64,000 nucleotides of DNA, from the sequence record NC_070990.1; one strand, written 5' to 3'. The notes below the pieces were generated by a model. That model did no database searches, was not told where the DNA came from, and saw only the letters and a list, made by a program, of their open reading frames with translations. Shown here piece by piece: positions 32,853 to 43,996 of the stretch; within the stretch, counting starts at the first letter, position 1; every line of letters begins with the position of its first letter. The DNA is from Escherichia phage MN03. A program made the position numbers and the translations under genes.

Positions 32853-34697
32853 TTAGTGTGTGTGCATCCAGTTAAGTCCAATCTGACAATCAGAAGCCAG
32901 AGGGCATTCCATGTTCAAATACTCACCAGCCTTCTTAACACAAAGCTCGGTGTGCTCTTTGAGTTTCTGTACATCATTACGGTTCACTGAGAATTGACCT
33001 TCATCGTGCATATCAATTACCTTAGCACAACGAACCTTATCTTTCTCAATCCACTTGTTAAGGAACATCATAGCATATTTCATAACAACAGCACCAGCAC
33101 ATTGCAGGAGTGTGTTAAGGGCTTTATGAACCATAACCTTACCAGTGGCATCCCGTCTCATTGTAATCTTACGACCATCAACTCCAATCAAGTATCCTTG
33201 AGCAGCTTTCTCTGTCATACGATCAATGAGGATTGCAATACATGGGTTCTCTGCTAAGAAACGTGCTCGCATCACTGAACCTTCGTCAGCCCCACCACCT
33301 ACAATTGAACCAAGCTTAGCGTCACCAGCACCATAGTTGAATGCGTAGATAAACGTCTTAGCGTTGTCACGAGTAGGAAGACCAGCAAGTTTCTGGTTGT
33401 GGGAGTGGATATCACCTTCAAGGAGAATATCACGATACATAATAGCAGAAGCTAAACCACGTTCTGCCAGAGCTTTCTTAGCTGGATTGTTCTCTTCGAT
33501 TGCCTCAGCAAGCATATCCCTACACTCTTTAATGAGGTAGTGAGCGAGCATACGAAGTTCAAGCCCAGAACCATCATACCCTAAGAATACTTCTTTACCA
33601 GCGGGTATGTAATATTTGTAAGCACCTACAGGTTTGTCTTTCTTCCCCGGTTTACCTTTCTCATAAATTACGTTAGTACCTTTTCGTATATAACAACCAT
33701 CAGGAACAACGTTAGTAATAACGAAAGGACGAGAATGATCACTGTCTGAGTTATAGTCAGACTCAAACAAACTGCGACACTCGTGACCAAACAAACCACG
33801 GGAGGGAATATTAACCACGATACGATGTTTGAATCGAAAAGTCGGCGTAGCGCAGCTGTTAGCTTCTGCCGAAAGTTTACCATCTTCTCGCTCCTTTGCT
33901 ATGAGTCCACTGATAAGACCTAGCCTGTGAGCCGCCACAACGCGTCTCTTAAGCAAACTTCCGACACTCCCTAGCTCACCCCCTAACCCTTCTTCAAGAG
34001 TCTCCTCGAGGTTTGTAGGAGCTGTAGGCCACTTGTTTGATGTGGCTAGTGCTTTCTTAATCTCATCAAACGTTACAGGATTACGGCGATTAGGGTTTAA
34101 TCCCAAACCAAACACGTAAGCCTTCATGTAATTCTTAGTCTTAAACCTGAAATGCTTTTCTAAGAACTTCTTAATATCAGCGTCAACCATCTCAGCTGTC
34201 TGCTTCTGCTTAGCATTGCCTCGCATCCAAGCAGTATACCATGCTTGGTATGTTCCATACTTTCTCATATCTTTCTTAATTTCGAAAGTATTCCAAGGCT
34301 TCTTAGATACGTTAAACTCTGGAGGAAGAAAGCCCTCATCCATAAGAGCTTCTTTAACTCGTGCATCTTTCGATGGGTCAAAGTCTACGTATTCGACACA
34401 GGTGAATGCTCCACCAATATCTTCTCTCTTCAGCCCAACCCTATCACAATAGGCTTGAGGCCACTTCTGTAAAGCTCCAGACTTCTTAAATGGCTTCATG
34501 TAAGTAGAGCCATCTAATCTCATCTTAGGTAAGAGAGGAATCAACTCTCTGTCAATATTAACAATAATCTCTTTAAGGAGGTGAACATACCACCGAGCAT
34601 TTCTTCGGTTGAAACTCACTCCGTGCTTTGCTTGCTTAGAGATTATATCAGCGACAGTCATCTCTGTCAAAAATGGAAGAGCGTCCGGGTTGCTCAC
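32853..34697 (-). CDS. DNA polymerase, family A, polymerase domain only
   Basis: Motif A LGYDGSGLELR, motif B RDNAKTFIYAFNYGAG, motif C MHDE. Confidence 0.85.
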   Translation of the reverse strand: MSNPDALPFLTEMTVADIISKQAKHGVSFNRRNARWYVHLLKEIIVNIDRELIPLLPKMRLDGSTYMKPFKKSGALQKWPQAYCDRVGLKREDIGGAFTCVEYVDFDPSKDARVKEALMDEGFLPPEFNVSKKPWNTFEIKKDMRKYGTYQAWYTAWMRGNAKQKQTAEMVDADIKKFLEKHFRFKTKNYMKAYVFGLGLNPNRRNPVTFDEIKKALATSNKWPTAPTNLEETLEEGLGGELGSVGSLLKRRVVAAHRLGLISGLIAKEREDGKLSAEANSCATPTFRFKHRIVVNIPSRGLFGHECRSLFESDYNSDSDHSRPFVITNVVPDGCYIRKGTNVIYEKGKPGKKDKPVGAYKYYIPAGKEVFLGYDGSGLELRMLAHYLIKECRDMLAEAIEENNPAKKALAERGLASAIMYRDILLEGDIHSHNQKLAGLPTRDNAKTFIYAFNYGAGDAKLGSIVGGGADEGSVMRARFLAENPCIAILIDRMTEKAAQGYLIGVDGRKITMRRDATGKVMVHKALNTLLQCAGAVVMKYAMMFLNKWIEKDKVRCAKVIDMHDEGQFSVNRNDVQKLKEHTELCVKKAGEYLNMECPLASDCQIGLNWMHTH

Positions 34698-34713
34698 TTT
34701 ATACTCCTTTAAA

Positions 34714-35136
34714 TTATTGGTAAAGTAAATCTGTAAATGCTTGGTTATCTTCTACTACATTCAACATGGTAGCTTCATCACTATAAGCCCTAACCGTCCC
34801 GTTGACAACTGTCCAAGGAGGAGGTGGAGGTGGTGCATGGTTAGCCCTAGCTTCACGAGGTTGCTCTCGTACTAAATGAGCCACAACCCTCTGATTAGCA
34901 ACTTCTTCTCTTTCTCTGATAGCTCTCTGAATGTAGGCCAGCTTCATGCCCCAAGCTTCTTCAAACTCTTGAGGGTGTTTATCACTGATAACCACATACT
35001 GACGTTCAGGAATACCAGAGCGAATTTCTGATAATAATTCATGGAACAAATCCAGTTCATGTTCAGTGAGATTCATTTCGATATCATCCCACTTGAGAAC
35101 TAAGAAACGGTTTGGATATCTAGCTGGTAATGGCAT
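34714..35136 (-). CDS. hypothetical protein
   Basis: ORF. Confidence 0.35.
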   Translation of the reverse strand: MPLPARYPNRFLVLKWDDIEMNLTEHELDLFHELLSEIRSGIPERQYVVISDKHPQEFEEAWGMKLAYIQRAIREREEVANQRVVAHLVREQPREARANHAPPPPPPWTVVNGTVRAYSDEATMLNVVEDNQAFTDLLYQ

Positions 35137-35299
35137 CCTACTCCACCTCTACTTCAATGTAAGTTCTCTCGCCAACATCGTCTTTTAAGACCCATGACTT
35201 GGCATCTTCTTCCGACTTAAAAGCTTTCACAACGCTGTATCCGCCTTCCCATTCATCGCCGAACCAGCGCTGTCCTACGTAAATGTATTCTTTCATCAC

Positions 35300-35584
35300 T
35301 CAACCTCTTGGGAATGGCATCAAAAATTCCATAGCAGATTTAATCTCATTATTGATTCGTGAATCACGATAAGAGATAAACTTACCTTTGCTATCACGTA
35401 ACATCACATGGGTTCTGGCTGTTTTGTGAGGGAGCAATGTGATACTAGTTGGAATAGCATCAATCCCTACAGCGTATTTGTCAATAGTCTTACTTTCAGC
35501 CAACAGATAAGACCAAGTACGCGGTTTCTGCTCCGGGCGGTTAGGGTATGTGTCCCGAATTTGAACCATAGCTAACTTATTCAT
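35300..35584 (-). CDS. hypothetical protein, paralog pair member
   Basis: Shares ART-V-LRD-GKFISY motif with 35586..35840. Confidence 0.4.
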   Translation of the reverse strand: MNKLAMVQIRDTYPNRPEQKPRTWSYLLAESKTIDKYAVGIDAIPTSITLLPHKTARTHVMLRDSKGKFISYRDSRINNEIKSAMEFLMPFPRG

Positions 35585-42114: not shown

Positions 42115-42123
42115 TCTTATTCC

Positions 42124-43437
42124 TTAGTTATTTGTTTCCATGTCAAAAGAGATTCCACGACCCGCTTCATCGGCAAACCGAACTGTACGGGTTTGAGGTT
42201 CTAATACTTCAGGGTTGTTAGCAATAAAGCGATCAGCGAGACTATCTCCTAAATCTTGTTCCATACCTTCATCAGTCCAGATAACACGAGAAGGGGCGTT
42301 GATATCACCAACAGCAAAACCCTGACCAGAGAACTGACGTGCGCTAACAGTTAAGCCGTTTGGTCGACCACGAGAAGGACTAGCCATCCATCTCTCCATA
42401 GAATCACTTGTGATACCAAGAGCTTCTTCAAAAGATGTTCTACGAGTAGGGCTTACTCTTCGTGACTCTTGTGCTCGACGCATTGCAGGGGCTACAAACA
42501 CCCCTTCAATTGCATTGTGTCGGTTAGGCTCCTCTTCTCGACCAAGCAGATCACCACCCGTGTTAGTCGTTAGGTTTGTTAACCCTTCAGACCAATACGC
42601 ACGAATCTGACCAGACCCGTGAACGCTTGACATTAACAGAATCTCTTCATAAGGGATTCCAAAGAATAGACTCATGTCTCGGTTAACACAATATTGAGCA
42701 CTTGTTGTATCCTCAATAAGAGCAACCTGACCTCGTTCGTTGACTAGTTGGCTAACTGGTTGAGGTGTGGGAAGATATCGAGTTTGGGCCATGTATTGAT
42801 GAGCAACCGATGGAGATGAAAACCTCAATACCTGAGAATTGGGCCACTTCTTGTGGACATATCGGATTTCACGACTAGAAACAACCACTGGACAAGGGGC
42901 GGTCATAGCCAAATACCCATGGTTGGTCATGAACAAGTTATCAATAGTCATCGCACCACGGCACATCATAGGGAAATTATCCAACACCTCTTCAATAGAA
43001 GTAGGATAGTTAAACATGAATTGAATGCGGGTTCCATTCCACTGAAATTCAATAATATCAGTGAATGTTAATTGAGAACTCCCAGCATAGGACTCGTTTG
43101 TAGCCTCAGCAAGAAGAGATGAATACTCAATATCTTGTGACTCAAGCCATTCCTTCACGTTACTTTCAATCTCCCGTCCAAGCATTTGCCATCGCTCAGT
43201 TGGGACGAAAGTATTTTGAGTTCTTGGTGTTTGTCCTCTGACAATAAAGATATCAATGTCATGTGGGGCTATATTATTAAGCACAGCATCACGAATAGCC
43301 CCACCAGTAATGATAGGACAAATACCGTCTGGAATCAAGTTGTTGTCAATTAATTGTTCAATGAAGTGACGACCAACAGTAATATCGGGTTGTTGAGCAA
43401 CCTTATCTTCAATTCGGTTAATCGGGATAACAATCAT
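42124..43437 (-). CDS. nucleotidyltransferase with CCA-adding / poly(A) polymerase-like head domain
   Basis: GGAIRD ... DIDIF motif; C-terminal region unassigned. Confidence 0.45.
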   Translation of the reverse strand: MIVIPINRIEDKVAQQPDITVGRHFIEQLIDNNLIPDGICPIITGGAIRDAVLNNIAPHDIDIFIVRGQTPRTQNTFVPTERWQMLGREIESNVKEWLESQDIEYSSLLAEATNESYAGSSQLTFTDIIEFQWNGTRIQFMFNYPTSIEEVLDNFPMMCRGAMTIDNLFMTNHGYLAMTAPCPVVVSSREIRYVHKKWPNSQVLRFSSPSVAHQYMAQTRYLPTPQPVSQLVNERGQVALIEDTTSAQYCVNRDMSLFFGIPYEEILLMSSVHGSGQIRAYWSEGLTNLTTNTGGDLLGREEEPNRHNAIEGVFVAPAMRRAQESRRVSPTRRTSFEEALGITSDSMERWMASPSRGRPNGLTVSARQFSGQGFAVGDINAPSRVIWTDEGMEQDLGDSLADRFIANNPEVLEPQTRTVRFADEAGRGISFDMETNN

Positions 43438-43438
43438 T

Positions 43439-43996
43439 TTACATTTTCCAATATAATGAAGGTGGGTCGTAAGGGTCAAATCCCGTGAGTTCACACAAGA
43501 AAAGATAAACCTTAACAGTTAAGTTAACGTCCTGTTCACAATAAGTAAACATATCTTCAGTGAAAGCATCCCATGCTTCCTCTTGCTCACCGTAGTCACC
43601 TTTAAGTTCCCCTAAGAACTCACCCCATTGCTTCAAGCCGTGACCTCTTGGGCCACGTCTAGGGTCGCCTTTCGGATACTCAGGACTGTCACCAATACGA
43701 TCAGGTTTAAGATATCGACTAAGACATAAAGTGTCAAAGACGTTAAAATTATATTTAATCAAAGAAGGATACATCTTTTTCAGAGCAGGTAAGTCGAAGT
43801 CAATAATATTATGACCCACTAGTACATCTGCTTCTGTAAGTTTACGAATCCCGTCTTCAATTTGGTGAGGCCGATAGCCCCACCTTTCACCAGTTTCAAC
43901 ATCAAAGATATAAATACACCATACTTTAGTTATGTCATCGTATAGTGCATTACTCTCGATATCGAATGCAAACACTTTCTTCTTTTTCTTTACCAC
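43439..43996 (-). CDS. 3'-5' exonuclease (DnaQ/PolA-exo-like)
   Basis: Exo I FDIES and Exo [10 protein letters not shown] motifs. Confidence 0.6.

Follow-up and report, generated by a model that had tools for sequence, protein, structure and literature searches.

Exonuclease and polymerase genes at the locus

In the 64,000-nucleotide (nt) stretch of Escherichia phage MN03 analyzed here (sequence record NC_070990.1; hereafter, the window), the exonuclease and polymerase parts of a T7-like family A DNA polymerase are encoded by two genes, exo and pol, which lie far apart on the minus strand. Composition and open reading frame (ORF) layout placed all genes from ~24 kb to 64 kb on that strand. 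The 12.9-kb region containing both genes was 93 to 98% identical in DNA sequence to phiEc_1, SU10, NJ01, 172-1, Bas90, and other Escherichia phages, and judged by this similarity the window is a member of the phiEco32/SU10-type group (Kuravirus, subfamily Gordonclarkvirinae). Coordinates of the features discussed are given in Table 1.

The product of pol matched Pfam DNA_pol_A (PF00476) over residues 361 to 611 with 83.1 bits (gathering score, 34.3 bits), and its best match in the Protein Data Bank (PDB) was T7 gp5, residues 295 to 704. Polymerase motifs A, B, and C and the terminal histidine were invariant across 92 aligned relatives. An earlier sequence-only reading of the window had described a polymerase gene with these three motifs and without a 3'-5' exonuclease domain, a description borne out by Pfam, by the motif positions, and by alignment to T7 gp5. 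Translation starts at a GTG with a strong ribosome-binding site (AAGGAG) 6 nt upstream; a 140-amino-acid (aa) ORF, for which no Pfam match was found, ends 16 nt before this start.

The product of exo matched Pfam DNA_pol_A_exo1 (PF01612) with 35.3 bits (gathering score, 23.6 bits) and belongs to the PHROG families phrog_403 and phrog_38876. Its only PDB matches at E < 1 were T7 gp5 chains (residues 3 to 178; E = 1.5e-12). The sequence-only reading was right that this is a stand-alone gene with motifs Exo I and Exo II, but its motif list was incomplete, as Exo III (YCEQDV) is present as well. Across 44 aligned stand-alone homologues with identities as low as 32%, residues D12, E14, H62, N63, D68, and D156 were invariant and Y152 was nearly so; at the level of sequence, such conservation is what a functional DEDDy exonuclease would be expected to show.

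When 1.84 billion representative proteins were scanned in full with HMMER, 2,850 relatives of exo were returned. A few stand-alone proteins, similar to exo in length, stood at the very top, and beyond those many of the best matches were to the N termini of proteins of 570 to 730 aa. DNA_pol_A was found downstream of the exonuclease segment in all seven long relatives that were scanned. The C-terminal parts of two such fused proteins (P0069 and P0070) were homologous to pol of the window; in P0069, the C-terminal segment that aligned was 36% identical and included the terminal "TH." A DEDD nuclease unrelated to polymerases, which the sequence-only reading had named as a finding that would tell against it, was ruled out for exo, since the sole relative of solved structure is the T7 gp5 exonuclease domain and relatives exist in which exonuclease and polymerase are fused.

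The exo GTG start codon shares nucleotides with the codon that terminates the primase/helicase gene (GTGGTAA), with GGAG 7 nt upstream, and because of this overlap translational coupling of the two genes is likely. From the exo stop codon to the pol start codon the distance is 8,741 bp, so that the earlier placement of exo about 9 kb from pol and next to the primase/helicase gene holds.

Table 1. Features of the split polymerase locus in the window
Feature	Coordinates	Strand	Evidence or position
Exonuclease-less family A DNA polymerase (pol), 614 aa, ~T7 gp5 residues 205-704	32853..34697	-	PF00476, PDB match, MAFFT
Motif A LGYDGSGLELRMLAHY (D..LE), pol residues 372-387	33537..33584	-	
Motif B PTRDNAKTFIYAFNYGAG (R...K...F..YG), pol residues 441-458	33324..33377	-	
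Motif C VIDMHDEGQ (HDE), pol residues 560-568	32994..33020	-	
C-terminal His614 of pol, typical of T7-like enzymes	32856-32858	-	
Insertion 1, pol residues 134-223, predicted helical module	34029..34298	-	Alignment, AlphaFold2 model
Insertion 2, pol residues 313-370, just before motif A, predicted small beta module	33588..33761	-	Alignment, model
Insertion 3, pol residues 389-420, after motif A	33438..33533	-	Alignment
Stand-alone 3'-5' proofreading exonuclease (predicted; exo), 185 aa, ~T7 gp5 residues 1-204	43439..43996	-	PF01612, PDB, PHROG
Exo I FDIESN (D12, E14; DxE)	43949..43966	-	
Exo II (H62, N63, D68; NxxxD)	43781..43819	-	
Exo III YCEQDV (Y152, D156; YxxxD)	43526..43543	-	
T7 gp4-like primase/helicase	43990..45780	-	Pfam DnaB_C and Toprim, PHROG 239
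Interval between the halves, 8.7 kb, ~24 genes	34698..43438	-	Pfam, annotation of relatives
Phage-encoded thioredoxin, between the polymerase halves	39106-39435	-	
Separate 5'-3' (FEN-type) exonuclease, downstream of pol	24989..25831	-	Weak 5_3_exonuc_N/5_3_exonuc Pfam matches, below cut-off
First middle-promoter motif AAATGTATA-TA, gp36 sigma type	40932..40940	-	Upstream of the SU10 CDS68 homologue
Second middle-promoter motif TAATGTATA	36565..36573	-	Upstream of the pol-containing block
Third gp36-type motif	29539-29547	-	

The breakpoint lies in the interdomain linker

The position of the cut was determined by MAFFT alignment of T7 gp5 (taken from NC_001604) with exo and pol joined end to end, an alignment that the sequence-only reading had proposed for fixing the domain boundaries. 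The concatenated sequence ran along the whole of T7 gp5, with 36% identity over 614 aligned positions. Residue 1 of pol was aligned to about residue 205 of T7 gp5, with exo accounting for the residues before it (junction at ~204/205), and exo ended just past a conserved linker element, YFPPEI in T7 and YDPPSL here. The cut therefore falls in the linker between the two domains.

In a tblastn search of all six frames of the whole window with residues 1 to 200 of T7 gp5, the exo gene was the only match (E = 1e-17) and no second locus was found; therefore, no hidden exonuclease domain lies upstream of pol. There was also no exonuclease-like gene among the interval genes scanned against Pfam. An exonuclease domain in the 5' part of pol that would emerge upon frame correction, the other outcome weighed in the sequence-only reading, was thus ruled out by Pfam, by the T7 gp5 alignment, and by tblastn.

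The same breakpoint is found in five groups of phages

The exo homologues returned by a word-indexed search were all stand-alone proteins of 101 to 247 aa, mostly 160 to 195 aa. Close pol homologues (at least 36% identity, ~99% coverage) were all 490 to 618 aa long and all without an exonuclease domain, whereas fused relatives covered only 60 to 66% of pol. The numbers of matches per organism in tblastn searches with exo and pol agreed (Escherichia, 92 and 93; Proteus, 8 and 8; Salmonella, 7 and 7; Cronobacter, 6 and 6; Shigella, 3 and 3), and the two genes co-occurred across the clade. The protein search also returned many pol fragments of 437 to 460 aa, corresponding to ~72 to 74% of the query.

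Gene order was compared in seven annotated phage genomes and was in all of them primase/helicase, exo, other genes, and pol on one strand. The gap between exo and pol was 8.6 kb in SU10 (Kuravirus), 8.7 kb in Bas90 (Kuravirus type; record without genus), 6.7 kb in Salmonella phage 7-11 and 6.2 kb in Aeromonas phage BUCT695 (both Grimontviridae), 9.6 kb in Aeromonas phage 4_4572 (Lahexavirus), and 1.66 kb, with six small genes, in Pseudomonas phage "otherone" (Bruynoghevirus, LUZ24-like), in which the two products are named "DNA polymerase part I" and "part II." SU7 (Suseptimavirus) had the same layout. One extra gene was present between helicase and exo in 7-11 and 4_4572. The N terminus of pol, "(P)FLxExxVADIIS," stood at the same homologous position in Kuravirus, SU7, 7-11, 4_4572, BUCT695, and Bruynoghevirus, so that one breakpoint is common to Kuravirus, Suseptimavirus, Grimontviridae, Lahexavirus, and Bruynoghevirus.

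Insertions in pol accompany the split. Insertion 1 was found in all pol proteins of the split clade examined and neither in T7 gp5 nor in fused relatives; across the split lineages its length was ~75 to 95 aa, and that of the insertion before motif A (residues 313 to 370) was ~45 aa. The insertion before motif A and a further short one, before "HKALNTLLQ," were likewise common to the split lineages and were found neither in T7 gp5 nor in the fused marine relatives. Insertion 3 was present in Kuravirus, 7-11, and Lahexavirus, and only Bruynoghevirus lacked it.

Among 80 IMG/VR loci with more distant relatives of exo, ~55 carried a fused gene and ~16 carried adjacent or overlapping ORFs split at the same boundary; these were T7-like marine contigs. 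No distant split was seen in this set, in which one short contig (L004), with a stand-alone exo and no pol in reach, escaped classification. Taken together, these comparisons suggest that a T7-like polymerase gene underwent one old fission in the region coding for the linker and that the gap was widened later by acquired genes, among them genes of nucleotide metabolism, because the breakpoint is common to all groups while the gap varies from 1.7 to 9.6 kb.

Two further arrangements were observed in relatives. In eight marine T7-like IMG/VR contigs, the exo and pol ORFs overlap by 28 to 135 nt from stop to stop in different frames, and the split falls at the same domain boundary. Such overlapping ORFs could reflect programmed frameshifting or a real two-gene arrangement, as the GenBank record of cyanophage S-TIP37 also suggests for its exo and pol ORFs. 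In SU7 (L088, 1151-3602) and BUCT695 (L084, 26708-29177), pol is further interrupted, at two different positions, by an HNH or other endonuclease gene, leaving a C-terminal piece of 51 aa or 103 aa and thus a polymerase in three pieces. Such interruptions could be introns, like the one reported for LUZ24, or true splits.

The joined proteins are modeled as a T7-like enzyme

The two proteins of the window were joined end to end and modeled with AlphaFold2, using an alignment of 91 fused or pol-only homologues. The joined chain was predicted with a mean pLDDT (predicted local distance difference test score) of 93.6 and a pTM (predicted template modeling score) of 0.89, and the sole segment with a pLDDT of <50 was the artificial junction (residues 182 to 187). 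When the model was compared with the PDB by Foldseek, the top 27 matches were all full-length T7 gp5 (target-normalized TM-score, 0.68 to 0.80; best root mean square deviation, 4.4 Å), and Klenow and Bst fragments ranked after these. According to the model, the sequences are fully compatible with a T7-like arrangement of exonuclease and polymerase, with the natural cut in a flexible linker. Since the modeled chain was a covalent fusion and natural fusions were part of the alignment, this result speaks to compatibility and not to an interface formed in trans.

A predicted early/middle border lies between exo and pol

Temporal classes were transferred from the mapping published for SU10, in which CDS69 to CDS125 are early and CDS25 to CDS68 middle by homology to phiEco32 (PMC4281155). 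In the SU10 record, exo corresponds to SU10_075, the primase/helicase gene to SU10_076, and pol to SU10_051. Three SU10 middle promoters carry the gp36-type motif tAATGTATAtA (PMC4281155), and three such motifs were located in the window (Table 1), the first of which marks the early/middle border and lies between exo and pol. From the SU10 classes and the motif positions, exo would therefore belong to a sigma70-dependent early unit, and pol would lie downstream of two middle promoters. The two subunits would therefore be under different transcriptional control, and in phiEco32 the protein gp79 silences transcription by sigma70 and turns on that by gp36 (PMC12276001). By this analogy, separate regulation of exo (CDS75, early) and pol (CDS51, middle) is plausible, in keeping with what the sequence-only reading had proposed. 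The proteins detected by SU10 proteomics included pol, the thioredoxin, and the nucleotidyltransferase encoded next to exo.

A perfect sigma70 consensus (TTGACA, a 17-nt spacer with TG, and TATAAT; 12 of 12 positions) was also seen at 34642-34670 (-); it falls in the first 56 nt of pol and is codirectional with the gene. A transcript from this site would miss the pol start codon, and the next in-frame methionine is residue 59. The site may be fortuitous or specific to Kuravirus, because its -10 box falls on the conserved "ADII" codons and its -35 box is lost in Suseptimavirus SU7; for the same reasons, it was dropped as a part of the split-polymerase finding.

Genes between and around the two halves

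The interval between the halves includes genes for a nucleotidyltransferase, dCTP deaminase, a Dps/ferritin-like protein, thioredoxin, ThyX, an Nlig-Ia domain protein, and PhoH. In T7, thioredoxin is the processivity factor of gp5. The segment of pol aligned to the thioredoxin-binding loop (T7 residues 262 to 338) was shorter, roughly 23 to 29 residues by reading of the alignments, and poorly conserved. For phage Privateer, a phage thioredoxin has been proposed as processivity factor for a T7-like polymerase (PMC7881722).

The nucleotidyltransferase (437 aa; 42124-43437, -) follows exo after a gap of 1 nt, and SU10 proteomics identified it as an early protein. It had a weak match to the CCA-adding/poly(A) polymerase head domain (17.7 bits, below the cut-off). 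The gene follows exo in Kuravirus and SU7 and is not at this position in 7-11, BUCT695, 4_4572, or Bruynoghevirus. The product of a gene annotated as encoding a DNA-binding protein (40007-40618, -) contains a domain of the ferritin/Dps type (Pfam Ferritin, 30.9 bits). The gene is kept in the exo-pol interval of all relatives of C3 morphotype, and its product was abundant in SU10 proteomics. The 107-aa protein encoded at 37698-38021 (-) is limited to one domain of NAD-dependent DNA ligase, the NAD+-binding domain Ia (Pfam Nlig-Ia, 121 bits), and the examined part of the window showed no catalytic domain of a ligase; the label "NAD-dependent DNA ligase" or "DNA ligase" given to this protein in relatives seems an overcall. 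Between exo and pol, the coding strand contained two strong hairpins with 11-bp stems, at 35881-35906 (-) and 39972-40000 (-). The former is followed by a T run, and at the corresponding position in SU7, upstream of the small genes preceding pol, a terminator is annotated.

Downstream of pol, homologues of the FEN-type gene are annotated as 5'-3' exonuclease in 7-11 and Bruynoghevirus. The replication/regulation block downstream of pol (24188-28261, -) further encodes a macro-domain protein (27740-28261, -), an SLOG/YspA-like protein (26684-27076, -), a WYL-domain protein (24188-24550, -), and a homologue of gp36, an ECF-like sigma factor with a weak Sigma70_r2 match (27073-27720, -).

Discussion

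The window most probably contains a polymerase gene of the T7 gp5 type that was split into exo and pol, the products of which reassemble as one enzyme, presumably a heterodimer. Both halves are intact and all catalytic motifs are present. On this account, the split would be an old one and would have fallen in the flexible linker that connects the 3'-5' exonuclease and polymerase domains. The exonuclease half would have kept the ancestral position behind the primase/helicase gene and would be translationally coupled to it, and the polymerase half would have come to lie 8.7 kb downstream as genes of nucleotide metabolism and accessory genes filled the interval. By associating noncovalently, the two proteins would form an enzyme like that of T7, with the 185-aa chain proofreading the 3' end that the 614-aa polymerase makes; a two-subunit arrangement of this kind was among the possibilities named in the sequence-only reading.

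Several points weigh against this account. Our literature searches gave no biochemical study of exo-pol binding or of proofreading for split T7-like polymerases, and exo went undetected in the mass spectrometry of SU10 proteins. The structure model was built from an artificial fusion with an alignment that contained naturally fused homologues. For the regulatory part, the temporal classes go back to homology with phiEco32. The SU10 authors report that the border of early and middle genes has no terminator, and they point out that early transcription may read through into the middle genes (PMC4281155).

It is also conceivable that the phage exploits the split. With exo early, coupled in translation to the helicase gene, and silenced through gp79, and pol expressed from gp36 middle promoters, the ratio of exo to pol, and with it proofreading and fidelity, might shift during infection, and the insertions at residues 134 to 223 and 313 to 370, seen in split-clade polymerases only, might serve as docking elements in place of the lost covalent tether. 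We consider this elaboration unlikely.

Among the alternatives to a reassembled enzyme, one is that the 185-aa protein is an autonomous early nuclease that derives from a polymerase exonuclease domain and no longer works with the polymerase, which would then be proofreading deficient. Such a nuclease might act in 3'-end trimming during recombination or repair, in degradation of host DNA, or in countering host defense. The assignment, by homology, of exo to the early and pol to the middle class and the 8.7 kb between them would fit this idea, as would the fact that family A polymerase domains such as Klenow and Taq work without an exonuclease domain. However, in five or more genera or families exo is strictly retained beside an exonuclease-less pol; its catalytic residues are invariant, and its closest relatives are polymerase-attached exonuclease domains. 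Moreover, the joined chain was modeled confidently as a T7-like enzyme, and the primase/helicase, an undisputed replication protein, is encoded in the early unit as well. We therefore hold an autonomous nuclease to be improbable.

An equally improbable alternative is that exo is mainly a partner of the primase/helicase and reaches the primer terminus via the helicase rather than docked as in T7 gp5. The overlap of the exo start codon with the helicase stop codon could be taken in its favor, and so could the adjacency of helicase and exo genes, which is kept in every lineage examined while the exo-pol distance varies about sixfold. Yet this adjacency needs no functional explanation, because a helicase gene followed by the 5' end of the polymerase gene is the ancestral T7 order (gene 4, gene 5). 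In 7-11 and 4_4572, moreover, another gene stands between helicase and exo, and the joined-chain model favors T7-like packing of exo against pol. For the view that the split is an artefact, be it an error of sequencing or assembly, a frameshift, or a fragment of a decaying pseudogene, nothing was found in favor, and it can hardly be entertained, given the same two ORFs of the same lengths in many independently sequenced Kuravirus genomes, good ribosome-binding sites on both, ~24 intact genes between them, and an exo protein cluster of 191 member sequences.

As it stands, the finding means little beyond the rediscovery of a documented feature of phiEco32-like and LUZ24-like phages. Some value lies in its being a naturally occurring case of a family A replicase that probably proofreads in trans. 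It would be a convenient system in which to ask how an untethered exonuclease domain reaches the primer end and whether a phage tunes fidelity by subunit stoichiometry. What the present analysis adds is the exact breakpoint relative to T7 gp5, the sharing of this breakpoint and of the pol insertions by five groups, the range of the gap from 1.7 to 9.6 kb, and the different transcription classes of the halves. We did not find the breakpoint, gap range, and pol insertions stated as one comparative picture in the papers that we read, and we regard this as a small addition.

Comparison with known systems

The split organization is already documented for phiEco32-like and LUZ24-like phages, since at least 2012. 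A polymerase with separately encoded 5'-3' and 3'-5' exonuclease subunits was reported for all Kuravirus-like phages, 7-11, Privateer, Vp_R1, and BUCT695 (PMC9965538; Viruses 2023). Polymerase and proofreading exonuclease were described as separate genes in every LUZ24-group phage, and a similar organization was credited to the 2008 report on phiEco32 (PMC3517423; PLoS One 2012). In GenBank/RefSeq, the small gene is labeled "DNA polymerase" in SU10 and "DNA polymerase exonuclease subunit" in Bas90, 7-11, GAP52, Privateer, and others, the latter being also the name carried by both PHROG families of exo.

The Kuravirus phages phiEco32, SU10, and YF01 have the same genes, order, and spacing as the window, at 93 to 98% nucleotide identity, and nothing substantive differs. 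The LUZ24/PaP3/tf group (Bruynoghevirus) resembles the window in its breakpoint, in an exo that overlaps the end of the primase/helicase gene, in a pol with 39 to 42% identity over the full length, insertions 1 and 2 included, and in the same upstream module (amidoligase, GATase, ATP-grasp, and cyclotransferase). It differs in a gap of 1.66 kb with six small genes, versus 8.7 kb with ~24 genes in the window, in the absence of insertion 3, and, for LUZ24, in an intron in pol (PMC3517423).

T7 gp5 is the best match in the PDB for pol and the only one for exo, and the joined model superposes on the full-length protein. It differs in being one polypeptide, in lacking the three pol insertions, and in having a longer thioredoxin-binding loop. 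The T7 order of genes 4, 5, and 6 (helicase, polymerase, and 5'-3' exonuclease) is kept in the window, with the FEN-type gene placed like T7 gene 6.

In marine T7-like phages such as cyanophage S-TIP37 (for other split polymerases, see PMC10580990 and bioRxiv 10.1101/325100), the polymerase is likewise split at or near the exo/pol boundary, and their exo is 35 to 45% identical to that of the window; in these phages, however, the two ORFs adjoin or overlap (0 to 700 nt), possibly read by frameshifting, and both the pol insertions and the distant arrangement are absent. In OM43 phages the break lies inside the polymerase domain. A functional analogy is offered by Escherichia coli DNA polymerase III, in which the polymerase (alpha, DnaE) and a DEDD proofreader (epsilon, DnaQ) reside on separate chains that assemble noncovalently. 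That polymerase is of family C rather than family A, and its epsilon subunit did not arise by the splitting of a polymerase gene.

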